Virus record (IMG/VR): IMGVR_UViG_3300032242_000488
Location: 32,001 to 96,000 of that record
DNA: 64,000 nucleotides
Direction: 5' to 3' (one strand)
Source of the DNA: a virus
The notes under the pieces were generated by a model. The model was not told where the DNA came from. It ran no database searches and saw only the letters and a list, made by a program, of their open reading frames with translations. Positions 30,498-60,775 of the stretch are shown in pieces. How positions within the stretch are numbered: the first letter of the stretch is position 1; every line of letters starts with the position of its first letter. A program made the position numbers and the translations under genes.

Positions 30498-31292
30498 ATG
30501 TCAGTTCCATTTGAAATCCAAGACAATCTTGTCAACGTTGGCGTAGTTGCCAACGACGGTACAGGTGATGATCTTAGAAATGCATTTTTAAAAATTAACG
30601 GAAACTTCCTATACTTAGGTAATAGATTAGGAACAGATCCTAGTGGAACTAACTTAGGATCCACCGGCGAGTCAGTGTTTAAAGAAGTTGTAGATTTTCA
30701 ATATCGATTTAGAAAGATCGATGCTGATGGCAACCTGCATGTTAGACTCGTAGGCGATGTTATTACCTTAGAGTTCAAACCAAATAGTGCTGTTGATTTT
30801 CACGGCCAGGCTATTACTAATGCTAGTGCCGTAACTGCTACAAGTTTTACCGGTAATCTAAGTGGTAATGTAACGGGTAATGTAAGCGGTAATGCTCACA
30901 CAGTGGATAACGGTGTTTACACAACCGGTGATCAAACAATTGGTGGAGTTAAAACATTTAACTCTAGAATAAACGGTGATATTAACGGAAATGCACATAC
31001 AGTAGATGACGGAGTTTACACCCGGGGAAATCAGAACATAGATGGTTTTAAAACTTTCCTCCAACCTATAGCAGGACTATTATCAGGCAATGTAACAGGA
31101 TTTATTAGAAGTCCAGGCCAAACTGCTTACGTGGATGTAAGCAACTTAGAAAGACGAATAAATACATTTGACTACGGAGTTATCAATCCAGTGTTTGTGG
31201 ATCCTATAAGCTACTATTTGTACGCAGTAGGAACTGATATGGGCACATTCAATAACCCTAGCGAATTTAGCATAGACGCTGGAACTATATAA
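30498..31292 (+). CDS. Short fibre/baseplate protein with gp9/gp10-like N-terminus
   Basis: VNVGVVANDGTGDDLRNAFLKINGNF; GN[VL][ST] repeats; duplicated GNAHTVD.GVYT.G.Q.I.G.KTF. Confidence 0.75.
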   Translation: MSVPFEIQDNLVNVGVVANDGTGDDLRNAFLKINGNFLYLGNRLGTDPSGTNLGSTGESVFKEVVDFQYRFRKIDADGNLHVRLVGDVITLEFKPNSAVDFHGQAITNASAVTATSFTGNLSGNVTGNVSGNAHTVDNGVYTTGDQTIGGVKTFNSRINGDINGNAHTVDDGVYTRGNQNIDGFKTFLQPIAGLLSGNVTGFIRSPGQTAYVDVSNLERRINTFDYGVINPVFVDPISYYLYAVGTDMGTFNNPSEFSIDAGTI

Positions 31293-31303
31293 CGGAGAAT
31301 ATA

Positions 31304-32992
31304 ATGGCATTACAAATTAGACGCGGACCAACAGCAGACAGAACAAGCAAAGTATTTGCTGAGGGCGAATTAGTTTACGACACGCAAGAAAAAGCAGTAT
31401 ACATCGGCGACGGTACTACTTCTGGTGGTAAGGCAGCATCATCTTATACTGACGAGCGAGCAGTTGATGCAGTAGGTGCGGCACTGGTTGCTGGTACTGG
31501 TAATGTTGTTTTCACCTATGGAACAACACAAGATAATGCCAATAGAATAGATGCAACTGTTACTTTAGACGGCATCGGTCTTACTGCAATTAATCAAGAC
31601 ACAAGTCCACAGCTTGGCGGTAATTTAAGTTTAAATAGTCACAATATTACAGGTACAGGTAGCATTAATATTACCGGTGATGCTACTGCTACTAACTTCT
31701 ACGGTGAACTACACGGTAATGCGGCTACTGTTACTAACGGTATCTATGCTGGACAGAAGTTTCATATTGGTACTACAGAAATTGATATTGGCAGAGTATC
31801 TGCAACACAAACATTAACTGGCACAAATATTGATGGTAACGCCGGTGGAAACGCAGCCACTGCAACTAAATTGGCAGCTACTAAAAACATCAACGGTGTA
31901 GCATTTGACGGTAGTGCCGATGTTACAGTAATAACACAAGGCACAGGAGTTACTGTTAGCGGAAGCACTATTAGTATTGGTCAAGCTGTTGCTACCACTA
32001 GTAATGTTACATTCAATGACGTAACAGTTAGTGGTAATTTAATTGTTAACGGCGATACTACCACACTTAATACAACAACACTGACTGTTGAAGATATTAA
32101 TATTAACATTGCTAAAAATGCAACAAGTATAGGAGCGGCTGATGGGGCAGGAATTACTATTGGTAACTATGCAAACAGCCCAACTTTAACATATCTACAA
32201 AGCGGTGATAAACTTGTTTTTAATAGACGAGTTGATGCTACAAGTTTTTATGGTGATTTTACAGGCAATGTGACCGGTAATGTTACAGGTAATGTAACAG
32301 GTAACGTGACTAGCGTAAGCGATAATTCATTTGGAACAGCAACTATTAGCGGCGGCGATAGTAATAATTCTAGTTTGAAACTTGCAGGATACAATCAACG
32401 TGGTGGTGTTGGGTTCCATGGATTTTTAGAAGTTAGAAACAACTATTCTTCTGCGGCAAATCCCAACAGATATTTCCGTTTAAATTCCGATGGTGTTTTA
32501 GAAATTATCAACAGCTCATATGCCGTAACGTTATTGGCATTAGACAATGATGGCAATATGACAATCCATGGAACATTCCAATCTATTGGTAATATAACTG
32601 CTCCACAATTTAACGGAGATGTAGCAGGTAATGTTATTACTACTAATATTAATACTCCAACTATAGGCGGAATACTAACTGTTCCTCCTCAAGTAAAATT
32701 TAACAATTATGTTGATATTGATCAAGGACTATCAATAGCAGGCGATTATGTAGTATCAGTATCTGGATATAAAGTGGTTAGTGCCGTTGCTCCAGGATTT
32801 ACAACTGCTGTTGATCTAACCAATACTAGAGCAACATTTAATGTTCCAGTACGTTTTGGTAGCTATACAACAACACAAAGAAATGCACTGACACCTACTA
32901 ACGGTGATGTAATTTATTGTTCAGACAGCGGACCTGGCGGTATTGGTCAATTCTTAGGCTATGCAAACGGTGCTTGGACATCGCTAAGTTAA
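31304..32992 (+). CDS. Tail fibre protein with Mtd_N-like N-terminal domain
   Basis: MALQIRRG...EGELVYDT..K.VYIGDG.T.GG N-terminus; ATKLA..KNINGV.FDGS.DV and TGNV x4 fibre repeats. Confidence 0.8.
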   Translation: MALQIRRGPTADRTSKVFAEGELVYDTQEKAVYIGDGTTSGGKAASSYTDERAVDAVGAALVAGTGNVVFTYGTTQDNANRIDATVTLDGIGLTAINQDTSPQLGGNLSLNSHNITGTGSINITGDATATNFYGELHGNAATVTNGIYAGQKFHIGTTEIDIGRVSATQTLTGTNIDGNAGGNAATATKLAATKNINGVAFDGSADVTVITQGTGVTVSGSTISIGQAVATTSNVTFNDVTVSGNLIVNGDTTTLNTTTLTVEDININIAKNATSIGAADGAGITIGNYANSPTLTYLQSGDKLVFNRRVDATSFYGDFTGNVTGNVTGNVTGNVTSVSDNSFGTATISGGDSNNSSLKLAGYNQRGGVGFHGFLEVRNNYSSAANPNRYFRLNSDGVLEIINSSYAVTLLALDNDGNMTIHGTFQSIGNITAPQFNGDVAGNVITTNINTPTIGGILTVPPQVKFNNYVDIDQGLSIAGDYVVSVSGYKVVSAVAPGFTTAVDLTNTRATFNVPVRFGSYTTTQRNALTPTNGDVIYCSDSGPGGIGQFLGYANGAWTSLS

Positions 32993-46978: not shown

Positions 46979-47809
46979 ATGGACTATTATAATGTATTAG
47001 GCGTTCCTAGAGGTGCTAGCTCCGAGGACATTAAGAAAGCCTATAGAAAACTAGCCGCAGTCCACCATCCAGATCGTGGTGGTGATACCTCACAGTTTCA
47101 AAAACTACAAGAAGCATACGCAACACTCAGTGACGATCAAAAACGTGCCGAGTACGATAATCCGCAACCACAATTTGGTGGGCCAGGAGGATTCCACTTC
47201 CATACAGGAAATATGAATGACATATTTGGTAATATGTTTGGTGGACCGTTTGGCGGATTCCAACAACGTGGAATGATGCGTAAAAATAAATCTATCAACA
47301 TCACTGTACAGATGACTCTCAAAGATATCCTGCATGGTAAAGATATTGTTGGTAGCATCCGTTTACCGTCTGGTAGAGAACAAGCAATCCAACTTAAAAT
47401 CCCTAAGGGTGTTGCTATGGGAGATAGTATTCGATTCCACGAAATGGGCGACGATACTCATCCGCAACTACCTCGAGGCGACCTAATTGCTATTATTGAA
47501 GAAGTACCGCATCCACAGTTTGAGCGTAGAGGTCCGGACTTGTACACAACTGCACCGATATCAGTATTTGATACAATGCTAGGAACTTCTATTAAAATTC
47601 AAACTATAGATGATTCTACATTAGACATCACAGTTCCAGCAGGGATTAATCCAGGTACTACAATGTGCTGTCATCAATACGGGTTGCCAATTGGCATGCA
47701 CGAACATCGTCGAGGAAACTTATATGTTAAGATCGATGTTGTTGTTCCAAAAAATGTGGATTACCAAGATGCTGAAATTTTAAAGCAATTAAAAGCCAAG
47801 TACGGTTGA
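46979..47809 (+). CDS. dnaJ: DnaJ-class co-chaperone (type II/CbpA-like, no Zn finger)
   Basis: DYYNVLGV...IKKAYRKLA..HHPDR J-domain, G/F-rich linker, DnaJ_C (GDL, GNLYV). Confidence 0.9.
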   Translation: MDYYNVLGVPRGASSEDIKKAYRKLAAVHHPDRGGDTSQFQKLQEAYATLSDDQKRAEYDNPQPQFGGPGGFHFHTGNMNDIFGNMFGGPFGGFQQRGMMRKNKSINITVQMTLKDILHGKDIVGSIRLPSGREQAIQLKIPKGVAMGDSIRFHEMGDDTHPQLPRGDLIAIIEEVPHPQFERRGPDLYTTAPISVFDTMLGTSIKIQTIDDSTLDITVPAGINPGTTMCCHQYGLPIGMHEHRRGNLYVKIDVVVPKNVDYQDAEILKQLKAKYG

Positions 47810-47833
47810 CAACTGTTTTAATTCGTGTATAAT
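47806..47833 (+). promoter_or_regulatory. sigma70 promoter for clpA
   Basis: TTGACA (47806-11, containing the dnaJ TGA), 16 bp spacer, TATAAT (47828-33). Confidence 0.7.
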
Positions 47834-47860
47834 TAACTTATCATAACCTAAGGAAACGTA

Positions 47861-50113
47861 ATGGTAGAACCAAGTGATCAATTACAAGTAGTATTTGAAA
47901 AAGCAGTTGAAGACTGTAAAAAACTATCGCATGAGTATGTTACTCTAGAGCATTTAGTATATGCTATGCTATGCGAAGAAAAATTCTTTGAACTACTAAG
48001 TAATTTTGGTGCTGATACTACATATATCAAAACCAATTTAGAGCACTATTTGAAAAATAATCTTGACGAGATTAAAATAGAAAATGCTCCAAAAGGATTT
48101 AAACCTAAAAAGACTCAAACAGTCGAACGTGTGCTTAATCGTGCGTTCACACAGGTTCTGTTTAGTGGACGTCAAAGTATTGAACTTGTTGATGTGTTTC
48201 TAAGTATCCTTAGCGAAAAACGTAGCTATGCAGTCTACTATATCAATAAGGGCGGTATTGAACGAGAAAAATTTGCTGACTTTGTTAATAACGAACTCAA
48301 CGAAGAGGAAGAAGATACTGTAGTAGATGCCCAAAGTGAAAAAGCACTTAGAGCATTTACAACTAACCTTAACGATCAAGTCAAGAAAGCCAAGATCGAT
48401 CCTGTGATTGGTCGAGTAGAAGAACTTGAACAAATTGCATTGGGCTTAGGTCGTCGTACTAAAAATAACGTATTGTTAGTAGGTGATCCGGGTGTTGGTA
48501 AGACTGCTATCGCAGAAGGACTTGCATTTAACATCATTCACGGTGCTGTTCCAGAGTTCTTAAAAGAATACACAGTTTATAACTTAGACATTAGTTCTAT
48601 GTTAGCAGGCAGTAAATATCGCGGTGACTTTGAAGAAAGATTTAAACTTGTTCTTAAGGCATTAACTGGTAAAGGTAAAACTATTCTATTCATTGACGAA
48701 GCACACATGATTAGTGGTGCAGGTGCAGGTGGTGGAAATAGCAGTAACGACCTTGCTAACATGATGAAGCCAGCACTGAGCAAGGGCAATATCAAAGTTG
48801 TTGCTTCAACTACTTGGGAAGAATTCCGCAAGTACTTTGAAAAGGATCGTGCCTTGATGCGTCGATTCCAACGTATTACTATCGATGAACCTACTCCAGA
48901 AATGGCCATTGAGATTCTTAAGGGTATCAAGAAGTACTACGAGAAACATCACAATGCTACAATTACAGATACTGCGGTTGAGTCAGCAGTTAAACTAAGT
49001 GTCAAGTATTTACCAGATCGTAAGTTACCAGATAAGGCCATTGATTTGATTGACGTTGCTTGCTCACGTTTTAATATCAAACAAGTTGATAACAGAAATG
49101 TTGATGTAGCTGAAATTCAATTTGAACTTAGTAAAATGGCTAACTTGCCTGAAGAAACTGTCAAGGAAAAAGAAAGCGAAAATCTTGTTAACCTTGAAAA
49201 GAATCTTAAAGGTGAAGTTTACGGACAAGACGAAGCTATTACAGAAGTTGTTGACAAGATCTTTGTTGCACAAGCTGGATTGAAAGCAGAAAACAAGCCT
49301 ATTGGATCATTTGTGTTTATGGGGCCAACTGGTGTTGGTAAAACAGAAGCCGCTAAACAATTGGCTAAACAACTAGGCATCCCAATGATCCGCTTTGATA
49401 TGAGTGAATATCAAGAGAAGCACTCTGTGTCCAAGCTCATTGGATCGCCTCCGGGTTATGTTGGCTTTGAAGAAAATGCTGGCCTATTGATTACTAAACT
49501 ACAAGAGCAACCACATTGTGTTCTATTGCTAGACGAGATTGAAAAGTCACACCCAGATGTGTCAACTATCTTGTTGCAGTTAATGGACAATGGTAAGGTC
49601 ACCGGATCTAATGGTAAAGAAGCTGATTGCCGTAATGTAGTTCTTATTATGACAACTAACTTAGGTGCCGCTGATGCAGATCGAAACGTTATTGGCTTTG
49701 GTAGCCAAGAAAATGACTACGAAGATAAAGAACTTAAGAAGTTCTTTGCTCCAGAGTTCCGTAATCGTTTAGATGGTATTATTACATTCAGCAAGTTAAG
49801 CAAAGAAACAATGATCAAGATCGTTGGCAAGTTCCTAGTTGAACTTAAAACACAGGTTAACGATAAAGGTATTACTGTTACTATCAGTAATGAAGCTATT
49901 GATTACTTGGTTGAAAAAGGCTTTGATAGCAAGATGGGTGCTCGTCCGTTACAACGTGTTATTGACAAAGACGTTAAGCGTCCGTTGTCACGTGAGATGT
50001 TGTTTGGCAGTTTAAAAGATGGTGGCGCTGTTGAAATTGATGTTAATGATGACGGTATTATATTAAAAACTAAACAGAATGTATCAGAAGAAAACTACCA
50101 AGCTATTCTTTAA
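47861..50113 (+). CDS. clpA: ATP-dependent Clp protease ATP-binding subunit ClpA
   Basis: HEYVTLEHL N-domain, two AAA+ modules (GDPGVGKT; GPTGVGKT), no ClpB middle domain, VIGF ClpP-docking loop, MGARPL. Confidence 0.92.
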   Translation: MVEPSDQLQVVFEKAVEDCKKLSHEYVTLEHLVYAMLCEEKFFELLSNFGADTTYIKTNLEHYLKNNLDEIKIENAPKGFKPKKTQTVERVLNRAFTQVLFSGRQSIELVDVFLSILSEKRSYAVYYINKGGIEREKFADFVNNELNEEEEDTVVDAQSEKALRAFTTNLNDQVKKAKIDPVIGRVEELEQIALGLGRRTKNNVLLVGDPGVGKTAIAEGLAFNIIHGAVPEFLKEYTVYNLDISSMLAGSKYRGDFEERFKLVLKALTGKGKTILFIDEAHMISGAGAGGGNSSNDLANMMKPALSKGNIKVVASTTWEEFRKYFEKDRALMRRFQRITIDEPTPEMAIEILKGIKKYYEKHHNATITDTAVESAVKLSVKYLPDRKLPDKAIDLIDVACSRFNIKQVDNRNVDVAEIQFELSKMANLPEETVKEKESENLVNLEKNLKGEVYGQDEAITEVVDKIFVAQAGLKAENKPIGSFVFMGPTGVGKTEAAKQLAKQLGIPMIRFDMSEYQEKHSVSKLIGSPPGYVGFEENAGLLITKLQEQPHCVLLLDEIEKSHPDVSTILLQLMDNGKVTGSNGKEADCRNVVLIMTTNLGAADADRNVIGFGSQENDYEDKELKKFFAPEFRNRLDGIITFSKLSKETMIKIVGKFLVELKTQVNDKGITVTISNEAIDYLVEKGFDSKMGARPLQRVIDKDVKRPLSREMLFGSLKDGGAVEIDVNDDGIILKTKQNVSEENYQAIL

Positions 50114-50732
50114 CAAATACGTTTATAAGGTAGCAATCCGTACTCCGTTGTCTACGCTGTTTAGAGGTAAAAATCTTCCAAACACTAGACAACAGATTGA
50201 GGTATTGTCTGAACGTTTTGATAACAAGCGTGTATCGTCTACTAGTATAACCAATGGGTGGCGTAGTAGACAACAGGCTACATCAACAGATGTGTTTGTT
50301 GGACTACTATTACTAGACCAATTAGACTCGTTAAGTGATTTTACACTCAGGGTTGAAAATAGTACACTAGGGTTATACTGTAATGATTTAGACTTTATCT
50401 CAAAAGTTACCAATATTGTTGGTATTAATGTAGAAGAAATTGCAGTACCTGAAACCGATGACGTCCGTGACTTTTTGTTGTCAAATCCCAAGTCCATTAT
50501 CCGCGGAGAGTATACACACAAGTATAAAGTAACGGTTAATGCGCTATGGGAATCTGCTGATAACTTTAAAGCATGGGCTGTTAAATTGCCTAAAATTAAG
50601 ACTACTAATAACAAATATCGCTTTGGCGGTCACTTTTATGTAGCAGATGAAAAGACTCTGAGCCTTTGCCACATCTTTTTAGCTGATAAAATACGCAAAG
50701 TAGAACAGCTAGTCACTACAACGGAAATTTAA
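50079..50732 (+). CDS. Hypothetical protein (217 aa)
   Basis: ORF overlapping the clpA end; T.KLFFNKYVYK N-terminus. Confidence 0.65.
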   Translation: MYQKKTTKLFFNKYVYKVAIRTPLSTLFRGKNLPNTRQQIEVLSERFDNKRVSSTSITNGWRSRQQATSTDVFVGLLLLDQLDSLSDFTLRVENSTLGLYCNDLDFISKVTNIVGINVEEIAVPETDDVRDFLLSNPKSIIRGEYTHKYKVTVNALWESADNFKAWAVKLPKIKTTNNKYRFGGHFYVADEKTLSLCHIFLADKIRKVEQLVTTTEI

Positions 50733-50748
50733 CCTAACTTCAAAATAG

Positions 50749-50756
50749 CATAAATA
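50749..50756 (+). promoter_or_regulatory. Late promoter box CATAAATA heading the head-cargo cluster
   Basis: Intergenic NNTAAATA. Further copies at 54786-93, 59326-33 and 60032-39. Confidence 0.7.
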
Positions 50757-50779: not shown

Positions 50780-51124
50780 ATGAGAATGGATGAAGTTGCA
50801 AACTCAGTGATTAATTTAGAAGAAATAGATCTGCCTGCAGATTTACATTTTTTCATGCATAACGATCACAATTTTTACCGCAAGGTGTTTTTTCCTATGA
50901 TTAGCAAGGTTAAAGCACACATTAAAGCAGGTAATCGTTGCCACGATGGCGTATTCCGTCCTGTAGTTGATACTGCCGCAGAAACATACTGCAAAAAGTT
51001 TAATATTCCCGACAATCACAAGTCTGTATTCACAGATGTTGATCGTGATGAGCTAGCCCGTAAGATTTTTGGTCAAGAAAAAGATCGTATTGAGCAGGGC
51101 GACTATGATGGAGACGACCAATGA
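50780..51124 (+). CDS. Hypothetical late protein (114 aa)
   Basis: AAGG SD; DL.FFM.ND..FYRK.FFP motif. Confidence 0.7.
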   Translation: MRMDEVANSVINLEEIDLPADLHFFMHNDHNFYRKVFFPMISKVKAHIKAGNRCHDGVFRPVVDTAAETYCKKFNIPDNHKSVFTDVDRDELARKIFGQEKDRIEQGDYDGDDQ

Positions 51125-51882
51125 TTTTATTAGAAGGCGGTAATGTATTTGCCAATGCAACTCCATTCGATCACAAAGATGTTCCTGCAATACTTAAAAC
51201 AATCAACGGCGCACTAGCCGGTACCGGTATTACTGCTATTCCCGTCGGTTCGGCTGCTACACCAAAACACGGTCATACTAGCGGAGATATGGACGTTATT
51301 GTAGACGAACAGGCAGTACTAAACTACTTCAAAGCTAAGGATGCCAAAGCAGGCCGTAAGGCACTTAATGATTATATCAGCAGTAAAGGTTTAGAAACTG
51401 CACAAAGTGGTATCAATGTACACGTAAACGTTCCTGTTAACGGAGAGTTTCATCAAGTAGACGTTATGGTATCAGCTAATGCTGAGAAAGTGTCAAAATT
51501 TCACACCCATGCTATTCCAGATAACAGTCCTTACAAGGGCGTTAACAAACAACTAATGATGGCCATACTTGCCAAACAAAAGAACTATATGTGGTCAGCA
51601 TGGCAAGGTCTGTTTAGTCGTACACCAGAAGGTAAGAAGGGTGAACTAGTTGCCGATAACTTGGATGATGTTGCCAAACACCTGTTTGGTCCTAACGGTA
51701 GTGCTAAAGATTTAGGAAGTGTCGAAGCCATCCTTGCCGCATTACCTAAACCAGAAGCAGATGCACTATTGGCCAAAGCCAAAGAAGATGCTAACTGGAA
51801 AGAAGTACCAGTCAAGCAAGAAAGTTATCGTATTGGAACTAACGAATGGTTCCGTCATATGTTGGATAAGGTACAGCTATGA
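51121..51882 (+). CDS. Pol-beta-superfamily nucleotidyltransferase
   Basis: PVGSA.......SGDMDVIVD (GS...DxD) with a third acidic residue in HQVDVM; N-terminal MILLE|GGNVF. Confidence 0.7.
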   Translation: MILLEGGNVFANATPFDHKDVPAILKTINGALAGTGITAIPVGSAATPKHGHTSGDMDVIVDEQAVLNYFKAKDAKAGRKALNDYISSKGLETAQSGINVHVNVPVNGEFHQVDVMVSANAEKVSKFHTHAIPDNSPYKGVNKQLMMAILAKQKNYMWSAWQGLFSRTPEGKKGELVADNLDDVAKHLFGPNGSAKDLGSVEAILAALPKPEADALLAKAKEDANWKEVPVKQESYRIGTNEWFRHMLDKVQL

Positions 51883-53021
51883 GACTAAGACAACTGTTTA
51901 AAGAAGCAGAAGCACCTAAACAGTTAGGTCGAGCATTTAACCACCTAGAAGATCTAGTTTTCTTTCACGGTACTAAAGGCACACTTGAAGCACTAAGTCA
52001 TATTAAAGACTTTGCCAGTCAAGAAGGCGCACAGAGTATTCGTATGAAGTGGGACGGCAATCCACAAATATATTGGGGTCGTGCAGAAGCCAACGGTCCT
52101 TTAATATTAGCAGGACACAATGGTTGGAGCAAAGGTGCTGTAACAGACAGCCCAGAAGCTGTACAAGATTTTATTGCTAATAAATCTGGTAGTCCAAAGA
52201 CTCCAGAAGAAAAAGCAAGCCGTGATAAGTTTGCTAGCGAGTTCGCTAGCCTATATCCCCTGTTTGATAAAGCAACACCACGTGACTTTGTGGGTTTTGT
52301 CTATGCTGACGGTTTGTTCTTACAAAAGCCTGCGGCAGACAAAGAAGGTGTATACACATTCTGTCCTAATCCAAAGAGTCAAACTTGCTATCACGTTCGT
52401 GCTAATAGTCCACTAGGTAAACGCATCAGTGGCGCACAAGTAATGGTTGTGGGACATGCGTTCTTTCCAGAGTTTGGTATGCCTGATGCTAGTCAAAAGC
52501 CTATTAGTGACTTTAGTCAGTTTAACAGCAATCCACAACTAATCGTTCTTGGTCCAATATACAACAGCAAGCCTGTTAAGATTGACACTACCGCAGTTGA
52601 TGCCGTAGAACAGTTTGCACAAGCACACGGTCCACAGATGGACAGTTTCCTACAAGGACTTCCGGGACTAGGCGACCTAAAAAATATTATCTACACTTAT
52701 GTAAATCAAACAGCCAAAGCAAAACAGTTAGACTCGCTAAGTCCAAAACATTTTACAGAATGGTTGGCAGCTTCAAAGACTAGTCCGGGCAAACAACAAA
52801 AGATTAATGATCTAGTGGCGGCTAATCCAACAGCACTAGCAACTATCTTTACATTAGTAAAACGTATACAAGCAATGAAAGATGATATCATTGATCAAAT
52901 CGAAGGCGAACAAGGTGAGATATGGGATACGCACGGCGAAGGTCGTGTGCGTTATGCAGATCAAACTAAACAGCTAGGTCACGTTAAACTTGTACCTCGC
53001 AAGCGTTGGACACCGACCTAA
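51879..53021 (+). CDS. ATP-dependent ligase-like (covalent nucleotidyltransferase) protein, DUF6267-like
   Basis: Motif I KWDG, motif III-like YADGLF, motif IV GEGRV, motif V KLV; N-terminal MRLRQLFKE. Confidence 0.6.
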   Translation: MRLRQLFKEAEAPKQLGRAFNHLEDLVFFHGTKGTLEALSHIKDFASQEGAQSIRMKWDGNPQIYWGRAEANGPLILAGHNGWSKGAVTDSPEAVQDFIANKSGSPKTPEEKASRDKFASEFASLYPLFDKATPRDFVGFVYADGLFLQKPAADKEGVYTFCPNPKSQTCYHVRANSPLGKRISGAQVMVVGHAFFPEFGMPDASQKPISDFSQFNSNPQLIVLGPIYNSKPVKIDTTAVDAVEQFAQAHGPQMDSFLQGLPGLGDLKNIIYTYVNQTAKAKQLDSLSPKHFTEWLAASKTSPGKQQKINDLVAANPTALATIFTLVKRIQAMKDDIIDQIEGEQGEIWDTHGEGRVRYADQTKQLGHVKLVPRKRWTPT

Positions 53022-53030
53022 GGACTTATT

Positions 53031-54071
53031 ATGAAACTAAGACAACTATTTGAAGGAATGGGGCAGGAAGTTGCCATTATATTCGGTCGCTTTAACCCTC
53101 CGCATAAAGGACATAGAGCCGCATGGGAACTTGCCGCAAAGAGTCCTATTTGGTATGTAGGTACTAATGAAAGTACAGTAGGTCCAAAGGATCCATTACC
53201 ATACGGCATCAAAGTAGAAGCAATGACTGCCATATGGCCAGAAGTTGAAGGACATATTATTGCAGAAACTTCATGGCTAACACTAGCTAGCCTAGTATAT
53301 GAGAAGCACGGAGATGTTACACTATTCTGCCTAACTGACGAAGATTGGGTTACTAAGACTATTGTTCAATACAATGGTAAAGAAGGTGCTCATGGTTTCT
53401 ATAACTTTAAAACTATTAAACAAAAGCCAACACCGCGTTTAAGTTCAGCTACTGCTTTACGTGACGCAGTAACAAAAGGCGATCGTGAAGCATTTGCTAA
53501 TGCCGCGGGTGTTCCAGCAGATACTCCTGTAGCAGGTAAACCATTCTTTGATCTTGTAGCAGAATACCTGCTACCATACTCTAATGCACCTGTAAAGAAA
53601 ACTGCAAAGAAGAAAGTGGCTGCACCTGTAGAAGGTGTAGAAGAAAGTATGTTGCCAGCTAGTGCGTTTGCAGGCAGTTCTAAATACAAAATGGGACAAG
53701 CAGGACAATGGCGTAACGACGGTCCTAGTAAGAATCGTCCGGCACGTCGAGGCGACCTAGTTGGATCCACAGATGAGTCCGAAGGTAGTCCGGAAGGTCT
53801 TCCACACTTAACAAAGACCATGCTAACACACATTGTACAGCAAGTTGGCTCAGAGGGCGCACACGCTATTATTAAAAGTTTAGAGTGGGGTGATGGTGCT
53901 AGTAAAGAACTTCTACATTTGATTGTTCAAGACATAGAAGACGATATAAAAGCCAACGACTTTAGACAAGAAGATGCAGCCGGCGTAGGTATCATTACTA
54001 AGCAAAACTCAACTGTAGATGTAAACAAAGGCACACCACGCAAAAATCTTAAAGCATTTAAACTAGCATGA
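53031..54071 (+). CDS. HIGH-superfamily (cytidylyl/adenylyl-transferase-like) enzyme with appended peptide modules
   Basis: IIFGRFNPPHKGH, KDPL, SSATALR (KMSKS-equivalent); N-terminal MKLRQLFE. Confidence 0.8.
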   Translation: MKLRQLFEGMGQEVAIIFGRFNPPHKGHRAAWELAAKSPIWYVGTNESTVGPKDPLPYGIKVEAMTAIWPEVEGHIIAETSWLTLASLVYEKHGDVTLFCLTDEDWVTKTIVQYNGKEGAHGFYNFKTIKQKPTPRLSSATALRDAVTKGDREAFANAAGVPADTPVAGKPFFDLVAEYLLPYSNAPVKKTAKKKVAAPVEGVEESMLPASAFAGSSKYKMGQAGQWRNDGPSKNRPARRGDLVGSTDESEGSPEGLPHLTKTMLTHIVQQVGSEGAHAIIKSLEWGDGASKELLHLIVQDIEDDIKANDFRQEDAAGVGIITKQNSTVDVNKGTPRKNLKAFKLA

Positions 54072-54355
54072 AACAATACAAGATAACAAGTCAAGATTTA
54101 ATTCAGGATAGTCCTGATGATTGTTATCTTGCACCTGAAGATCCAATCCATGAACTAAAGATATTATCTGGCATGGGCGGACTAGGCGCCGAAGCTAGAC
54201 TACATGAGTATCGTGCTAATCAAGGCAGTAATATAAGTGTTACTGGAGATAGCAAAGGCGAACTAATGAAGAAGCATAACATACAACCTGGAACTAAAGA
54301 ATGGTTTAAGTTATGGTTCAGTCGTCCGTACCTTACAGGAGAACCTCCCGTATGA
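54068..54355 (+). CDS. Hypothetical protein (95 aa)
   Basis: ATGA-coupled; C-terminal IQPGTKEWFKLWFSRP. Confidence 0.7.
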   Translation: MKQYKITSQDLIQDSPDDCYLAPEDPIHELKILSGMGGLGAEARLHEYRANQGSNISVTGDSKGELMKKHNIQPGTKEWFKLWFSRPYLTGEPPV

Positions 54356-54486
54356 AGCTACGTGAATTATTTGAACATAAAAAAGGTGTTCGTGCCGTTA
54401 AATATAATAAGAAACCAAAAGCGTTTATTGAACCTAAAAAACCAATCAAACCTAAAAAGGTAGGAACAAAACATGAAAATGAGTGA
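54352..54486 (+). CDS. 44-aa Lys-rich peptide with capsid-targeting-like N-terminus, not in the ORF track
   Basis: MKLRELFE|HKKGVRAVKYNKKPKAFIEPKKPIKPKKVGTKHENE; ATGA overlap with the upstream stop. Confidence 0.7.
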   Translation: MKLRELFEHKKGVRAVKYNKKPKAFIEPKKPIKPKKVGTKHENE

Positions 54487-54790
54487 ACTATTAGAAGCAA
54501 AAACTAAAAAAGCTGAGGCACCTAAGCCACGTAATTTTGTGGCTAAAAATGCTATCAACACAGGCGCTGGCGCACACAAAGACAAAAAGAAAGCCGCTAA
54601 ACAGGGCGATACTAAGCACAAGAATAAAGATCTTGAAATGGCAGAATCTGCTAGTGCAGGTGCTACTAGTGCGGCTAACGTAGGTGTAGGTCCTGTATAC
54701 AAGAACAAAAAACCTAAGATGCAAAAACCCGGAACTAACGCTTTAGACGGCGATAACTTAATGACCGGTGGCAGTATTGTAAAACGATAA
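54473..54790 (+). CDS. Basic putative internal head protein
   Basis: MKMSELLE|...PRNFVAKNA...GAGAHKDKKK...MAE|SASAGATS. Confidence 0.75.
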   Translation: MKMSELLEAKTKKAEAPKPRNFVAKNAINTGAGAHKDKKKAAKQGDTKHKNKDLEMAESASAGATSAANVGVGPVYKNKKPKMQKPGTNALDGDNLMTGGSIVKR

Positions 54791-54815
54791 ATACATAAAG
54801 ACAACGGAGTTACCC

Positions 54816-55766
54816 ATGCAACCACAAGTACAAATGCAACAACCAGACGATGAGGGCGGAATGGCCCGTGCAGACCTATATAGAGCTGCCAAGCACTCTA
54901 TGAAACTGTTTCAAATGATTCAGGATAATCAGCCACTAGAAGGTTGGGTACAAGCAAAGATCACCAAGGCTGCTGACTATCTAGACAGCATCTATCACTA
55001 CATGGAATATCAAGTAAAGTTTGGTCAAGGCGCAGTTGCTGCCAGCGTTGACGACATTACTGGAGACATGGAAACTGCCGCTCGTGCCGCAGAAGAAGAT
55101 GAAGAAAAAACTGATATGGAAGAATCTATGAACTACGAACAAAAACTTCAAGCACTATTAGAAAGTGCTGTTAAAAAAGCCAAAAAAGATTACGACGGTG
55201 ACGGCAAAATCGAAACTGGCAAGGATGAATATTTAGGTAGCCGAATCGCTGCCGCTAAGAAAGCTGGCAAGATGAAAGAAGGAACTTGTTCTGTCTGCCA
55301 TAAAGATCCGTGCAAGTGTAAAGATGTTAAAGAAGGTTTCCCAACTGTTGACGATGCAAAGAAAAATGCACAGGGTACAGCTGGAATGAAGGCAGGTGAA
55401 AAGAAAAAGTCTAGCACTGGTGGCACTATCGAAAAGACCAAGACTGGTATTAAACATACTGCTGGTAAGAATTATAGTGGCAAAGGCGTTGCAGAAGCTG
55501 ATGAAAAATGCAATCATAGTGCTAAAGGTAAAAAGTGTCCAGTACACGGCCTAAAAGAATGTGGTACTATGATGGCCTATGAAGCTGCCAAGCCAAGTGC
55601 AGGAATGAGCAAAGGTGCTAAGTCGGCATTAGTCAAGAAAGCTAAGAAGGGCGGAGATATTGGTAAGCCAGGTAAGAGTTTTGACAAAGTAGCCAAGGCT
55701 GCTGGTGGTGGCGAAAAAGGCAAAAAGATTGCCGCTGCCGCTATGTGGAAGAACGCGGCCAAGTAA
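54816..55766 (+). CDS. Modular putative internal head protein (316 aa)
   Basis: Late box at 54786. LEGWVQAKITKAADYL domain, DYDGDG motif, two Cys clusters and a Lys-rich tail, separated by x-x-E sites. Confidence 0.7.
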   Translation: MQPQVQMQQPDDEGGMARADLYRAAKHSMKLFQMIQDNQPLEGWVQAKITKAADYLDSIYHYMEYQVKFGQGAVAASVDDITGDMETAARAAEEDEEKTDMEESMNYEQKLQALLESAVKKAKKDYDGDGKIETGKDEYLGSRIAAAKKAGKMKEGTCSVCHKDPCKCKDVKEGFPTVDDAKKNAQGTAGMKAGEKKKSSTGGTIEKTKTGIKHTAGKNYSGKGVAEADEKCNHSAKGKKCPVHGLKECGTMMAYEAAKPSAGMSKGAKSALVKKAKKGGDIGKPGKSFDKVAKAAGGGEKGKKIAAAAMWKNAAK

Positions 55767-55778
55767 GGAATAGACAAA

Positions 55779-56741
55779 ATGGATATGAAGAAAATATTAC
55801 AAGCCTTTGACGGGGCCGCTGAGAAGAAGCCTGTGCAAGGTGCTAATGATATGAAGAAGTTCCTATCCATTGTGAAGGAAAGTGCTAATCCATATACACC
55901 TGCAAAAGAATCTGTTATTACAAGTTTTGAAGAAGGGTCAGTAGGCGGTGATGCTAATGCATTTTTGTTAGCCGCTGATACTATTCAAGATGAAGTAATG
56001 GCACAGGTTAACAAGATCAAGATCAATGCAGACGAAGCTAGCTTACGTGATATGATGGACAAGTTCAATGCTTTCATGACTGCTTATCATAATGTTGGTA
56101 AAGGCATTCTACAACCAGACATGTTTAATGATGAGATGGGCGAAAGCGTAGAAGAAGGCCGTCACGGATATGATGACAGTGGTATGAGTCTTGCACCGGG
56201 CAACGATGAAGGCCCTGATAGTTGGGACTACAGTGCGGCACATGATAGGATTGGCGCAGGCGATCCTAGACCAAAAAGAAGTGCATATCAAGCACCGCAG
56301 GATAAACCACAAATGGTTGGCATGTTCTTTTATAATGTACAACCAGGACAAGAAAATGAAGCAGCCGCATTAGGTATTAAACAAACTAAAAGCGGCAAAT
56401 GGGCAAAAACAAAATATAGCACAAGCGGACGCACATTTGGCATGCAAAAAGATCAAGCTGACAAGGCATTTGGTGTTGGCAAATGGTGGGCTCCTAAAAC
56501 AGAAAGCGTACAGTCAGTAGCAGAAATGGATAAGAGTCAAACTCCTCCAGGACGTGATGGTAGCAATAGTGATTCAGATGCTGGTAAGAAAGAATACTAC
56601 GGCAAATCTGTTAAGGCTAACGACGTTGTTAAAAGTGCTACTAAGAGTCTTGACAAAGAAATGAAGAAGGCGCATGCCAAAGAAGGCCTAAGTTTTAAAG
56701 ATTATGTTAACTTAGCAGAAGCTAAAAAGGGACTTGAATAA
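55779..56741 (+). CDS. Modular putative internal head protein (320 aa)
   Basis: AAGGA SD; repeated DMKK[IF]L motif; low-complexity modules delimited by VKE/FEE/VEE/VAE. Confidence 0.65.
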   Translation: MDMKKILQAFDGAAEKKPVQGANDMKKFLSIVKESANPYTPAKESVITSFEEGSVGGDANAFLLAADTIQDEVMAQVNKIKINADEASLRDMMDKFNAFMTAYHNVGKGILQPDMFNDEMGESVEEGRHGYDDSGMSLAPGNDEGPDSWDYSAAHDRIGAGDPRPKRSAYQAPQDKPQMVGMFFYNVQPGQENEAAALGIKQTKSGKWAKTKYSTSGRTFGMQKDQADKAFGVGKWWAPKTESVQSVAEMDKSQTPPGRDGSNSDSDAGKKEYYGKSVKANDVVKSATKSLDKEMKKAHAKEGLSFKDYVNLAEAKKGLE

Positions 56742-57130
56742 TGAGATTATTAGCCTTAGTAGTAGCAGTATCTTTAACCGGCTGTGCTAGCATTAAGGAA
56801 ATGATTCCTAGTTTTCAGGATCCTAATCAGTCAGCTAAGATTATAGATGTACGTCAAAGTGTAGCACAGTTGGATTGTAAACAACCACATGCTCCACAAG
56901 TTAAACAAATAAAAGATAACTTAGAATGGTTTGAGCTATATAGTACTAGCAAAGGCGAAAGACAAAACGATGTATTACGTTTGATCAAACCAATGCAAGA
57001 AACAGTAGATGATTTTTACAAGCGCAGTACAAGTGAAAAGCAGGGTAGCGATACCTATTGCGAGATTAAGAAAAAGTTAATGACTACACAGGCCGAACGT
57101 GCGGCGAGTGCAGTACTAGGGAGATTCTAA
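56741..57130 (+). CDS. Lipoprotein
   Basis: Signal peptide with LTGC lipobox; two further Cys. Confidence 0.8.
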   Translation: MRLLALVVAVSLTGCASIKEMIPSFQDPNQSAKIIDVRQSVAQLDCKQPHAPQVKQIKDNLEWFELYSTSKGERQNDVLRLIKPMQETVDDFYKRSTSEKQGSDTYCEIKKKLMTTQAERAASAVLGRF

Positions 57131-57363
57131 TGAACGAACTGATTCAATGTATTAACTCAGGAAAAGGTTGGGCCGCTGAACGTGCTAATATGGCATATCA
57201 AATAGGTCAAGCATTACAAGCAGGACAAGTAGGTCCTGATGAAGCAAAGGAACTGTTAGAAGATTTAGTTAGAACAGACAAGCTAGATGCAGAAGCAGAC
57301 GATATGGCTCTTAAGGCCTTGTTAGTTACTGGCATCTATGCAGTTATACAGATATGTGGGTAA
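57130..57363 (+). CDS. Hypothetical protein (77 aa)
   Basis: TAATG coupling; GGGAG SD. Confidence 0.65.
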   Translation: MNELIQCINSGKGWAAERANMAYQIGQALQAGQVGPDEAKELLEDLVRTDKLDAEADDMALKALLVTGIYAVIQICG

Positions 57364-57364
57364 T

Positions 57365-57799
57365 ATGGAACAACTAATAAACGCATTAAAAATAGCATTT
57401 GCCAGTGAATACGCATTTGCACTAAAGGCACAAAACTTTCATTGGAATACAGAAGGTCCAGATTTCTACGAGTTTCATTTGTTATTTGAAAGAATCTATG
57501 ACGAAGTCTACGGAAGTGTTGATGACTTTGCAGAAAACATTCGTAAGAGTGGCGCTTATGCTCCAGCAAGTCTAGCTAAGTTTAGTATGCTTACTACAGT
57601 TGAAGATGAGAACTCAGTTCCAGAAGCAAGAAGTATGGCAGCAGAACTATTAGCTGACAGTGACAAACTAGCACAGTTAATGGCTATGGTTTACAAAATG
57701 GCTGATGCTTCTGGCGAGTTTGGTCTAGCTAACTTCCTAGCAGATCGTCAAGATGCACATCGTAAGCACAGCTGGTTTTTACGTTCAATGTTAAAATGA
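57365..57799 (+). CDS. dps: Dps / ferritin-like DNA protection protein
   Basis: KAQNFHWNTEGPDFYEFHLLFERIY....D.FAE.IR...H.K..WFLRS. Confidence 0.92.
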   Translation: MEQLINALKIAFASEYAFALKAQNFHWNTEGPDFYEFHLLFERIYDEVYGSVDDFAENIRKSGAYAPASLAKFSMLTTVEDENSVPEARSMAAELLADSDKLAQLMAMVYKMADASGEFGLANFLADRQDAHRKHSWFLRSMLK

Positions 57800-57938
57800 G
57801 AGAAAATGAATATCCAGTCTATCCAGAAGATGATGGCACCGACCGTCCAAGAAATCCTTACAGCCCTGTATAATGGCCTAGCCTTATTCGGCGCTGGACT
57901 AGGTGGTATTCCATTAACTATTGGAGATTTAACAGATC

Positions 57939-58661
57939 ATGAGAGCAAATGAGTTTATAACTGAAGCATGGAGTCAGAAATACAAAAAGAGTATTAACTG
58001 CTCGCACCCTAAAGGTTTCAGTCAACGTGCCCATTGTGCTGGTCGAAAGAAACACAACGAATCAGTTGAGATGGAAATGACATGCCCTGACTGCGGCATG
58101 TGCGAATCACACGGCAATCTTAGTGAAATCAAAAAAGGTGCTAAAGACAGCAATGGCTTTACTAAGTGCTGGTCTGGATATCATGCCGCAGGTACAAAAC
58201 AAGGTAAGAATGGTTCAGTACGTAACTGTGTAAAGAATGAAAGCACAGAACTAGAAGAAGAGTTTGATCTTATAGAATCAATCATAGCTGATCTAGCTCT
58301 ACGCAATGGTGTTAACGAAGATGCTGTTTGGGAAGATTTAGAAACACTTACTGACGATGAACTATATGTGTTTGCTGTTACACAGCCAGTTAACGAAGAT
58401 TGGCAGAAAGTCAACAAACACGATAAGACTTCAGGTATGAGTCAAAAGGCAGTAAATGCCTATCGCAGAGAAAATCCAGGCAGTAAACTAAAAACTGCTG
58501 TAACAACAAAACCTAGCAAACTAAAGCGTGGTAGCAAAAGTGCCAAGCGTCGATCAAGTTATTGTTCTAGATCCGCTGGACAAAAGCGTATGCATCATAT
58601 AGATTGTAGTAAAACTCCAGACAAAGCAATTTGTGCGGCACGCCGTCGCTGGAACTGCTAA
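57939..58661 (+). CDS. Modular putative internal head protein with Cys-rich peptides (C-terminal DUF6321-like)
   Basis: MRANEFITE|AWSQKYKKSINC.HPKGFSQRAHC; CPDCGMC; KCWSGY...RNCVK; GMSQKAVNAYRRENPGSKLKTAVT...RRWNC. Confidence 0.75.
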   Translation: MRANEFITEAWSQKYKKSINCSHPKGFSQRAHCAGRKKHNESVEMEMTCPDCGMCESHGNLSEIKKGAKDSNGFTKCWSGYHAAGTKQGKNGSVRNCVKNESTELEEEFDLIESIIADLALRNGVNEDAVWEDLETLTDDELYVFAVTQPVNEDWQKVNKHDKTSGMSQKAVNAYRRENPGSKLKTAVTTKPSKLKRGSKSAKRRSSYCSRSAGQKRMHHIDCSKTPDKAICAARRRWNC

Positions 58662-59221
58662 TGCGAGCAAAGGAAATATTTGAAAACTTTGCTGACGGTA
58701 AACATCCTGAAGATAAGGGTGATAGCAAACGTTATCATGTACCAACTAAGGCTAGTGTAAGCACACTACGCAAAGTTGCCAAGCAGGGCGGACGTAAAGG
58801 ACAATTAGCACATTGGATGGCTAACATGAAAGCTGGTCGTGCTAAACATGAAAGCACAGAATCCGCAGATCCTAAAAAAGAAAAACTCATACACGACTTT
58901 CTTAAGTTTGCCACTAAGAAGCTACAATTACGTTCTGATTTTACAATAGAGTTTAGTTACGATACTAAGTCTGCACAAGATGAACATCACACAGGTGCAT
59001 ATAACTTTAAAAAGAATCATATGACTGTGTATTCTGCACATCGTAATCTAATAGATATATTACGTACATTATGCCACGAGCTAGTACATGCCAAACAAGA
59101 TCAGTTAGGACAACTACATCATCACGATGCTCCGGGTAGCCCACACGAAGCACAAGCAGATGAGATTGCAGGATATTTGATTAAGTTATACGTGAAGAAA
59201 CATCACGATATAATACAATGA
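58661..59221 (+). CDS. Putative internal head protein with an HExxH zinc-metallopeptidase domain
   Basis: MRAKEIFE|NFADGK... basic module, then DILRTLCHELVHAKQ...E.QA. Confidence 0.75.
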   Translation: MRAKEIFENFADGKHPEDKGDSKRYHVPTKASVSTLRKVAKQGGRKGQLAHWMANMKAGRAKHESTESADPKKEKLIHDFLKFATKKLQLRSDFTIEFSYDTKSAQDEHHTGAYNFKKNHMTVYSAHRNLIDILRTLCHELVHAKQDQLGQLHHHDAPGSPHEAQADEIAGYLIKLYVKKHHDIIQ

Positions 59222-59324
59222 ACACACCTTAGGACCGGTACTTGTTACCGAAAGTGTGCGCCGGCTGCTGGCGCAGGACGGCCCGATTCGCTACCGGGAA
59301 TCCTGGAAGTGAGCACTTTTTTTT
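59222..59324 (+). ncRNA. Unclassified GC-rich structured RNA element
   Basis: Helices CACAC/GTGTG, CGGTA/TACCG, CGCCG/TGGCG, CAGGA/TCCTG and CCCG/CGGG; possible pseudoknot TTCGCT/AGTGAG; ends in T8. Confidence 0.65.
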
Positions 59325-59337
59325 GGGTAAATACTAG

Positions 59338-60036
59338 ATGATTATATTATATACGTTAATACTAACACATATTACTATTGTTTGCGTTACCCTGTTCCTA
59401 CATAGAGGACAAGCACATAAAGGATTTGTTTTTAATCCTGTGCTAGAACACTTTATGCGCTTCTGGTTATGGTTAACAACAGGTATGGTTACTAAGCAGT
59501 GGGTAGCGATACACCGCAAGCATCACAGATTCAGTGATGTTGAGGGTGACCCGCATAGTCCACATGTATATGGTATATGGCGTGTATTCTTTAAGGGCGC
59601 AGGATTATATCATGATGCTAGTAAAGATGCAGTTATGGTTGCTACTTACGGTCAAGGTACTCCTTATGATTGGGTAGAGCGTAACATTTATACACCCCAC
59701 AGTCGCCTGGGCATTCTCCTAATGTTAGTTATAGACTTGTTGTTATTTGGGCCTTTAGGTTTAATAGTGTGGGGTGTACAAATGATATGGATTCCGTTCT
59801 GGGCCGCTGGTGTTATTAACGGAATAGGACATTGGTGGGGATATCGTAATGGCAAAACTAAAGATCATAGTCGTAATATTAGTCCTTGGGGCATTGTTAT
59901 TGGTGGCGAAGAACTGCATAACAACCACCACTTGGACCCAGCGAGTCCCAAGCTCAGCAAAAGGTGGTTTGAGTTTGATATAGGCTGGATGTGGTTTACA
60001 GTATTTAAAACACTTAGACTAGCAAAAGTTAGATAA
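59338..60036 (+). CDS. Delta-9-type acyl-CoA/fatty acid desaturase
   Basis: Three His boxes HRGQAH, HRKHH and HNNHH; GDPHSP; W.EFDIGW; TM segments. Confidence 0.92.
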   Translation: MIILYTLILTHITIVCVTLFLHRGQAHKGFVFNPVLEHFMRFWLWLTTGMVTKQWVAIHRKHHRFSDVEGDPHSPHVYGIWRVFFKGAGLYHDASKDAVMVATYGQGTPYDWVERNIYTPHSRLGILLMLVIDLLLFGPLGLIVWGVQMIWIPFWAAGVINGIGHWWGYRNGKTKDHSRNISPWGIVIGGEELHNNHHLDPASPKLSKRWFEFDIGWMWFTVFKTLRLAKVR

Positions 60037-60044
60037 ATATTATT

Positions 60045-60428
60045 ATGAGAGCAAAAGAATTTATTAAAGAAGCTAAAAAAGGTCATATGCTAAAGATTGA
60101 TCCAACTCACAAAGCTGGATTAAAAAATGCTATGACGTTTCCCGATCAAAACTCAAGTACAGGGTCAGCATATCTTAACTGGAGAATGGGTATTGCTCTA
60201 GCAGGTGCACCTGACTATCCTACAAAAATGGCCGCTGATAACTGGATCGGTGGAGACCCATTAGTTAGCACGTATACTCAGGAAGAATACGATATGGTAG
60301 TAGCTGCCAATGATGTAATCGGCGGTGGGCCACTGGAAAACTGGTCTGGCAAACGTAGCGAAGAACTTCCAGGTACACATAAAACAAGTCCAGTAGCTAA
60401 ACCAAAACGTAACAAGTACGGCGTATGA
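60045..60428 (+). CDS. Putative internal head protein
   Basis: MRAKEFIKE| N-terminus; late box 5 nt upstream; C-terminal SPVAKPKRNKYGV. Confidence 0.7.
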   Translation: MRAKEFIKEAKKGHMLKIDPTHKAGLKNAMTFPDQNSSTGSAYLNWRMGIALAGAPDYPTKMAADNWIGGDPLVSTYTQEEYDMVVAANDVIGGGPLENWSGKRSEELPGTHKTSPVAKPKRNKYGV

Positions 60429-60739
60429 AAATAAACGAGCTGTTAACAGAAGCCCCGATCGACTTTGATCCTAACGAGCCGATGAATCCGCTAGTACATA
60501 GCCACCAAGGTGCTAATCCTGGCAAGCTACAGTATCGTATGTTACGTGCGGCAGGTCAGTTAAAGGATCTTGCCAAGAGAGCAGAACATGCTAGTCCCTT
60601 AGAATGGGAAATGATTGCCAAAAACTTTTCAGAACTAGCAATGAACGTTGAACAGATTAGACATGGTCTAGAAGAACTTGCCGCACAACGTAAAAAAGGT
60701 GGCGTCCGTTCAAGAGGCATAGATCCAACTATTGGATAA
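60425..60739 (+). CDS. Putative internal head protein
   Basis: MKINELLTE| N-terminus; helical body. Confidence 0.7.
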   Translation: MKINELLTEAPIDFDPNEPMNPLVHSHQGANPGKLQYRMLRAAGQLKDLAKRAEHASPLEWEMIAKNFSELAMNVEQIRHGLEELAAQRKKGGVRSRGIDPTIG

Positions 60740-60746
60740 AATATAG

Positions 60747-60775
60747 TTGACACAGTCAACACAAGGCTATATAAT
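60747..60775 (+). promoter_or_regulatory. sigma70 promoter with a palindrome over the -35 box
   Basis: TTGACA (60747-52), 17 bp spacer, TATAAT (60770-75); GTTGAC-ACA-GTCAAC at 60746-60. Confidence 0.85.

Follow-up and report, generated by a model that had tools for sequence, protein, structure and literature searches.

In a block of genes at positions 50780–60739 of the analysed stretch, eight otherwise unrelated open reading frames (ORFs, named below by their start positions) begin with the same type of short N-terminal leader ending in Glu, and the most likely reading of these shared 8–9-residue N-termini is that they are capsid-targeting propeptides of the T4 internal-protein type. Since proteins with such tags are present in the published virion proteomes of cultured relatives, the eight proteins carrying them are probably cargo packaged into the phage head. 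The stretch (hereafter the window) contains 64,000 nucleotides and represents bases 32001–96000 of the 167,540-bp IMG/VR virus contig IMGVR_UViG_3300032242_000488, with a completeness of ~46% according to CheckV; its source is an uncultured, giant, lake-derived T4-like phage of a jumbo lineage. Just outside the window lie the genes for a portal of the T4 type (PF07230), a Peptidase_S77 prohead protease, a scaffold resembling gp22 and the capsid protein gp23, the protease being recognized by PF03420 (E 1.7e-26) and phrog_207 (E 5e-57) and sharing 35% identity with T4 gp21 (E 2.6e-18). When the block was compared with 50,697 phage records by megablast, there were no matches, and the nearest cultured relatives of the block proteins are found in marine and freshwater T4-like cyanophages and in the methylophage Melnitz.

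N-terminal leaders of the block

The leaders follow the pattern M-[KR]-x-[RNKS]-[EQ]-[LFI]-[FIL]-(0-1 residue)-E and are present in ORFs 51879, 53031, 54352, 54473, 57939, 58661, 60045 and 60425. When this strict pattern was searched at every ATG on both strands of the contig, eight matches were obtained, all of them being these gene starts, so the motif check on all ORF N-termini that had been proposed in the initial annotation confines the pattern, contig-wide, to the block. As the strict pattern was derived after the leaders had been seen and was written from the leaders themselves, a leave-one-out test with position-weight scoring was run on the N-termini of about 200 ORFs. Every held-out leader scored above all non-leader ORFs but one, namely a 78-aa head-module ORF following the portal gene, which has the sole N-terminus outside the block resembling the leaders and sits between the portal and protease genes, that is, at the position of T4 gene 67. 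The initial annotation had listed nine unrelated ORFs as sharing a short leader ending in Glu; all nine start coordinates are genuine ATG starts of + strand ORFs and the observation holds for eight of them, while the ninth N-terminus, MILLE of ORF 51121, is a misfit to the motif with just L-x-E at residue 5.

The terminal sequence is [LI]-x-E, which conforms to the gp21 rule, in seven leaders and F-K-E in the remaining one, that of ORF 51879. The leaders are short and amphipathic, positions 3, 6 and 7 being hydrophobic (i, i+3, i+4 spacing). The sequences following them are unrelated from gene to gene and include a DUF6267 protein, an HxGH cytidylyltransferase-like enzyme, a DUF6321 protein, a protein with an HExxH motif, two small basic peptides with a pI of ~10 (ORFs 54352 and 54473) and two proteins without any family assignment (ORFs 60045 and 60425). 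ORF 51879 matches Pfam DUF6267 (PF19782) with 60 bits at a gathering cut-off of 27, and its K57-x-D59-G60 motif is invariant across six diverse DUF6267 members. ORF 53031 scores 19.5 bits against PF01467, which is below the gathering cut-off of 21, and possesses the motif FGRFNPPHKGH (HxGH); it also matches phrog_3041 'cytidyltransferase' with an E-value of 1.8e-13, and its tblastn matches are phage cytidylyltransferases. The C-terminus of ORF 57939 matches Pfam DUF6321 (PF19846) with 36.9 bits at a cut-off of 28.5.

The cluster and its leaders are kept in seven further IMG/VR contigs (L005–L011), and in two diverged contigs (L012 and L013) the arrangement is kept with variant leaders; throughout these relatives the leaders are retained while the adjoining residues diverge. 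Among the 120 listed homologues of ORF 53031, all of which are at least 80% identical so that the leader count covers close homologues only, 119 open with M-x-[LI]-[RK]-x-[LI]-[FY]-E, mostly followed by Ala or Gly, and the single one without the leader and its Glu has a truncated start call. Contig L014, which is more distant, contains a 143-aa ORF opening with MKTYKQFIAE-A. In GAP32, the homologue of the NMNAT-like enzyme has no leader, so the tag is an add-on. The lineage of the 53031 homologues is very abundant in metagenomes, where 1108 proteins match at E<=0.001; a 365-kb contig carries one of these.

Synonymous codons vary among the leaders (CTA/CTG/TTA for one residue, AGA/CGT/CGA for another) and no relationship is seen in the DNA upstream of them; the likeness therefore lies at the peptide level and points to selection on the peptide. 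This bears on the possibility that the shared N-termini are a feature of the nucleic acid or of translation, such as an AT-rich initiation enhancer or a recombination linker, or else a remnant of paralogy, the peptide itself having no role. Highly expressed genes do commonly have AT-rich early codons and a second codon for Lys or Arg, the modules of the block are clearly shuffled at Glu joints (see below), and Repoila et al. (1994, cited in PMC9026906) reportedly proposed recombination of T-even internal-protein loci at the capsid-targeting sequence. Such an explanation is nevertheless highly improbable given the differing codons and upstream regions, the absence of the leader from highly expressed late genes such as gp23, the Glu kept in nearly all the listed 53031 homologues and the origin of the downstream domains from unrelated families.

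Likeness to T4 head proteins and cyanophage virion proteins

The N-termini of T4 proteins were translated from NC_000866. T4 ipII and ipIII open with MKTYQEFIAE/A (here and below a slash marks the join after Glu), ipI opens with MKTFKEF and runs to ITE/A, gp24 opens with MAKINELLRE/S, and gp22 with MLKEQLIAE/A. The gp24 propeptide is nearly matched by the leader MKINELLTE/A of ORF 60425, and ipII and ipIII have E-F-I-x-E-A in common with the leaders of ORFs 57939 and 60045, although the leaders here have diverged and are one residue shorter than those of ipII and ipIII. The N-terminus of the phage's own gp22 contains KQLFE/N.

In T4, the internal proteins (IPs) IPI, IPII and IPIII as well as Alt carry a capsid-targeting sequence (CTS) and are processed by gp21 (Mullaney & Black 1996; PMC3012670, PMC9026906, PMC5694885). 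The CTS is the only part shared by the T-even IPs, and its ten residues are sufficient for packaging (reviews PMC9026906, PMC3012670, PMC5694885). Residues 4 and 7 of the CTS are important in targeting, residues 8 and 10 in processing, and the i, i+3, i+4 hydrophobic spacing of the residues critical for these two functions (PMC9026906) is that of the leaders described here. Alt loses just six residues, being cut at ITE-6 (PMC5694885). Like the T4 IPs and Alt, the block proteins have a short propeptide (6–19 aa in T4, 8–9 aa here) with [LI]-x-E followed by a small residue, the leader is the sole common part of unrelated cargo, and both phages possess an S77 protease and a gp22 scaffold; promoter motifs suggest that the block, too, may be expressed late. 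Unlike T4, in which the three IP genes and alt are scattered, the phage has at least eight tagged genes in one putatively late block, and among its candidate cargo are NMNAT-like, DUF6267 (KxDG) and HExxH enzymes as well as multi-module proteins with joints resembling cleavage sites. A removable propeptide that targets head-internal cargo, enzymes included, is also found in the phiKZ-like jumbo phages SPN3US and 201phi2-1, with a gp21-related protease of the S77 family cutting after Glu; their propeptides, however, are mostly longer than 100 residues with an A/S/G-x-E cut site, hence another P3 preference, and no common short leader (PMC5694885), and the lineage is unrelated to the T4-like phage considered here.

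Proteins related to the tagged ones have been detected in cyanophage virions. Mass spectrometry (MS) of CsCl-purified S-CREM2 virions revealed 52 proteins (PMC10665884 Table 3), including cytidylyltransferase ORF154, SAM hydrolase ORF6, kinase ORF14, ORF13, ORF136 and ORF137 (PMC10665884), and, as read from the genome, ORF154, ORF6, ORF14, ORF13 and ORF136 open with near-identical leaders of the M-K-x-F-x-x-F-L-x-E type. With a CTS-like rule set in advance from T4 and the window, and with internal ATGs allowed for every ORF, 8 of 50 virion ORFs were positive compared to 6 of 160 others (Fisher P 0.006). ORF 53031 shows 25% identity to S-CREM2 ORF154 over 173 aa, and the C-terminal 96 aa of ORF 57939 are 75% identical to the C-terminus of the virion-detected ORF137. 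The S-SZBM1 cytidylyltransferase, also detected in virions by MS (PMC9146016), opens with MRFRQFIIE/A, and NMNAT-like proteins have been reported in S-SCSM1 and S-CBWM1 virions (PMC9602691). Melnitz has the same cluster with leaders present. The T4-like cyanophages thus resemble the phage described here in the leader type, the cytidylyltransferase, the DUF6321 domain and the DUF6267 gene adjoining the cytidylyltransferase gene; in the cyanophages and Melnitz, however, the cluster lies between gp41/MazG and gp61, whereas here it follows DnaJ and a ClpA-like gene. T4 gene 61.1 (54 aa, NC_000866 18966-19130), situated between genes 41 and 61, opens with the CTS-like MKTFKEFIKE, so the leader-cargo clusters of the cyanophages and Melnitz share their position with this T4 gene. 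The cyanophage virion papers make no mention of an N-terminal tag or CTS, the S-CREM2 paper being silent on N-termini or targeting, and a literature search for 'capsid targeting sequence' together with cyanophage returned one review only and nothing tying a CTS to cyanophage virion enzymes.

The frequency of potential cleavage sites was compared between scaffold and cargo. The gp22 scaffold of this phage contains 19 [LI]xE sites versus 6.9 expected, and the mature parts of the leader proteins contain five in 1645 aa (observed/expected 0.49); T4 displays the same pattern of an enriched scaffold (16 sites versus 5.7 expected in gp22) and depleted small cargo (none in 349 aa of the IPs). For the rest of the contig the observed/expected ratio is 1.26, the depletion in the leader proteins has a Poisson P of ~0.012, and none of the contiguous eight-gene sets elsewhere on the contig is as low in [LI]xE. 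These values also bear on the view that the tagged proteins are targeted to the prohead for assembly only, as T4 gp22, gp67 and gp68 are, and are then degraded and leave the head with nothing functional delivered. It would fit with the closest N-terminus outside the block belonging to the head-module ORF at the gene 67 position, with the low-complexity and basic character of several block proteins and with the internal Glu joints, which suggest extensive processing. It is unlikely, though, since beyond the leader the enzyme-bearing members are depleted in [LI]xE while the scaffold is not, mature virions of relatives were found to contain folded enzymes, the NMNAT-like ones for instance, and packaged enzymes have a precedent in T4 Alt.

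Several observations weigh against packaging through a T4-type propeptide. The cyanophage authors caution that non-structural proteins present in large amounts may co-purify with virions, and the depletion in [LI]xE is modest, in part a matter of composition, and not seen in T4 Alt. One leader, that of ORF 51879, departs from [LI]-x-E with its F-K-E end. About half of the genes at 50780–60739 have no leader, including those coding for a membrane desaturase, a Dps-like protein and a lipoprotein. Short N-termini of the hydrophobic-x-E type are not rare, as 25 of 267 ORFs in T4 and 17 of 179 in the present phage match a generic 'CTS-like' regular-expression rule; this rule was too loose as a detector and was dropped as such, being kept solely for the S-CREM2 enrichment test. 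In L006–L008, a HAD-like variant (DxDxT; L007:12307-13068) replaces the HExxH domain of ORF 58661 and keeps MRAKEF but no leader Glu, so that it may be targeted uncleaved. Finally, genes for a ClpA-like unfoldase and DnaJ are located immediately upstream of the block.

Since the unfoldase gene adjoins the block in relatives as well, another reader of N-terminal tags exists nearby, and the leader might serve as a degron or chaperone handle for this ClpA-like protein or as a tag for a modifying enzyme. DnaJ and the two-ring ClpA-like AAA+ protein with a Clp_N domain are encoded at window positions 46979–50732; together with a 217-aa ORF of no assigned family they precede the block in every relative with upstream sequence, and a ClpP-like N-terminus lies outside the window at genome positions 30900–31493 (motif-level evidence only). 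A role of the leader in such a machine is quite improbable, however, as the leaders specifically resemble T4 head propeptides and have the S77 cleavage motif at their end, the block ORFs include neither a radical-SAM enzyme nor any other candidate for a modifying enzyme, and the leader genes of S-CREM2 and S-SZBM1, which code for virion proteins, have no annotated Clp neighbour, although those genomes were not searched for Clp. The suggestion of the initial annotation that a T4-type propeptide with a Glu cleavage site is carried by unrelated cargo remains the best-supported reading in view of the T4 likeness, the S77 protease, the late-type boxes of the operons, the leader-like N-terminus in the head module, the [LI]xE statistics, the module boundaries at Glu and the virion MS of relatives. 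The block is not in its entirety the cargo kit that had been proposed: the tag is found on eight ORFs, and the desaturase, the Dps/ferritin-like protein and the lipoprotein are untagged.

Proposed packaging route and modular cargo

If the leaders are propeptides of the T4 type, the cargo genes would be transcribed late from NATAAATA boxes, and the amphipathic leader, through its hydrophobic residues 3, 6 and 7, would bind the gp22-based scaffolding core. The attached protein would thereby become enclosed as the gp23 shell forms. The gp21-type S77 prohead protease would then cut after the leader Glu ([LI]-x-E) and would probably also cut the similar internal joints of the multi-module proteins. 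The mature cargo, comprising the NMNAT-like, DUF6267 KxDG, HExxH and DUF6321 proteins and the small basic proteins, would stay in the head with the DNA and might be ejected into the host as the T4 IPs and Alt are. Core binding, cleavage, retention and ejection of the tagged proteins are thus all inferred; indirect support for removal of the leader by the protease consists of the module boundaries at Glu in three families, and ejection, like the action ahead of phage gene expression proposed in the initial annotation, is suggested by T4 alone.

In three cases the predicted cargo modules are shuffled at Glu joints. The NFADG module stands behind the leader in ORF 58661 and C-terminal to a HAD-like or other domain in relatives, with a Glu in front of it in every case. 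The 104-aa protein of ORF 60425 corresponds to the last 102 aa of the NMNAT-like protein in L013, where the join reads V-D-E/A-P. The third module, SASAGATSAANVG, is internal in ORF 54473 and directly behind the leader in L012 and L013. In ORF 54473 it follows LEMAE (window 54680–54720) and resembles the predicted mature N-terminus of gp23 after YLSE (SATAGATSAGNV; L002:15766-16938), so this module may mimic the context of the gp23 cleavage site.

It can be tentatively proposed, as a possibility on the doubtful side, that aquatic T4-like phages (cyanophages, methylophages and the lake jumbo lineage) share a plug-in cargo system in which a CTS-type tag and 'polyprotein' linkers with Glu joints serve to load and swap enzymes injected as time-zero tools for counter-defence and takeover. 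The candidate cargo of such a system would be an NMNAT-like adenylyltransferase functionally coupled to the KxDG DUF6267 enzyme, together with a nucleotidyltransferase, HAD, HExxH, SAM hydrolase and kinase proteins. In that case the injected enzymes might, for example, restore NAD+ or repair RNA ahead of phage gene expression. If the leaders are indeed capsid-targeting propeptides, sequence alone would suffice to pick out, among the genes of abundant aquatic T4-like phages, those for proteins delivered at the moment of infection; anti-defence functions are likely to be frequent among them, and the tag would be a candidate packaging handle beyond T4. Four cyanophage papers describe NMNAT-like enzymes, SAM hydrolase or kinase in virions and leave it undecided whether these are cargo or contaminants; the T4-type leader on those virion proteins and on their homologues here offers a loading mechanism. 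The CTS principle has been known from T4 since the 1990s, and the present findings extend its breadth and cargo rather than its kind, the unusual points being the large enzyme cargo and the polyprotein-like joints in a distant T4-like lineage.

Gene content and promoters of the block

The genes of the block are listed in Table 1. Many of them are joined by ATGA-type overlaps into translationally coupled runs.

Table 1 Genes and promoter-like boxes of the block in window coordinates; a slash marks the join following the leader Glu
Feature	Position	Strand	Remarks
ATAAATA late-promoter-like box	50750..50756	+	23 nt before the 50780 start; heads the run 50780-54790
114-aa ORF, degenerate leader	50780..51124	+	L012 and L013 orthologues open with MKIQDLFE-N, a typical leader
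253-aa ORF, MILLE start	51121..51882	+	weak candidate for a short Alt-like propeptide; [LI]xE absent beyond residue 5
Leader 51879-51905 (F-K-E/A) and DUF6267 protein	51879..53021	+	invariant K57-x-D-G
Leader 53031-53054 (L-F-E/G) and cytidylyltransferase/NMNAT-like enzyme	53031..54071	+	variable low-complexity C-terminal extension
Leader 54352-54375 (L-F-E/H) and 44-aa basic peptide	54352..54486	+	orthologue of 135 aa in L006 and L010
Leader 54473-54496 (L-L-E/A) and 105-aa basic protein, pI 10	54473..54790	+	internal module SASAGATSAANVG after Glu
ATAAATA late-promoter-like box	54787..54793	+	22 nt before the 54816 start; heads the run 54816-59221
Six leaderless genes	54816..57952	+	two low-complexity proteins (316 and 320 aa), a 77-aa ORF, a 48-aa ORF and the next two entries
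Lipoprotein, leaderless	lipobox at 56741	+	
Dps/ferritin-like protein, leaderless	57338-57799	+	
Leader 57939-57965 (I-T-E/A) and 240-aa Cys-rich protein	57939..58661	+	ends in DUF6321
Leader 58661-58684 (I-F-E/N), ~55-aa NFADG module, HExxH metalloprotease-like domain	58661..59221	+	
Fatty-acid-desaturase-like membrane protein	59338..60036	+	no leader, not cargo
ATAAATA box	60033..60039	+	5 nt before the 60045 start; same geometry at the box before the 78-aa head-module ORF
Leader 60045-60071 (I-K-E/A) and 127-aa protein	60045..60428	+	no known family; leader kept in relatives, following residues diverge
Leader 60425-60451 (L-T-E/A) and 104-aa module	60425..60739	+	leader nearly the T4 gp24 propeptide

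ORF 51121 contains a motif resembling nucleotidyltransferases of the pol-beta type, for which the Atlas gave a lead to NTP_transf_2 only. A phmmer search with ORFs 51121, 51879 and 53031 against PDB sequences returned no useful match. In the AlphaFold model of ORF 51879 (pLDDT 72), the leader forms a helix of low confidence, a disordered linker comes next, and the fold begins at about residue 20. Searches with this model in Foldseek and VIA-align gave helical-bundle noise and weak ligase rows (LigIV, T4 Rnl1 and Pmar-Lig, Z 5.9), so a ligase-like fold of the modelled DUF6267 protein stays a lead only. In contig L016 (L016:8807-10567, IMGVR_UViG_3300047284_000516), a DUF6267 domain with the invariant KxDG is fused with an NMNAT-like domain in one 586-aa ORF, which suggests that the products of ORFs 51879 and 53031 work together. 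Homologues of ORF 53031 whose N-terminal enzyme part is 80% or more identical are from 195 to 568 aa long, so its C-terminal extension is highly variable and modular; one of these homologues carries DUF6321.

The canonical late box TATAAATA has no occurrence on the + strand of the window and was set aside, and NATAAATA, which in this phage accompanies structural genes at ~20 nt before the start codon, was analysed instead. ATAAATA is present in 26 copies per 167.5 kb, which is rarer than the few dozen per strand expected from composition, and most copies are located 2–30 nt upstream of gene starts, chiefly those of fibre, baseplate and head genes. The initial annotation had placed the leader ORFs behind late boxes; the block has three NATAAATA boxes only (before 50780, 54816 and 60045), so the boxes head operons and do not precede each ORF. 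With ATAAATA boxes heading its gene runs, the block is plausibly transcribed late. The two copies lying 5 nt from an ATG, those of ORF 60045 and the 78-aa head ORF, hint at very short or absent 5′ leaders. Just beyond the block, a predicted sigma-70-type promoter TTGACA-N17-TATAAT at window positions 60747–60775 precedes the gene for a T4 DsbA-like regulator at 60798, and this putative promoter marks the change from late to early-type control.

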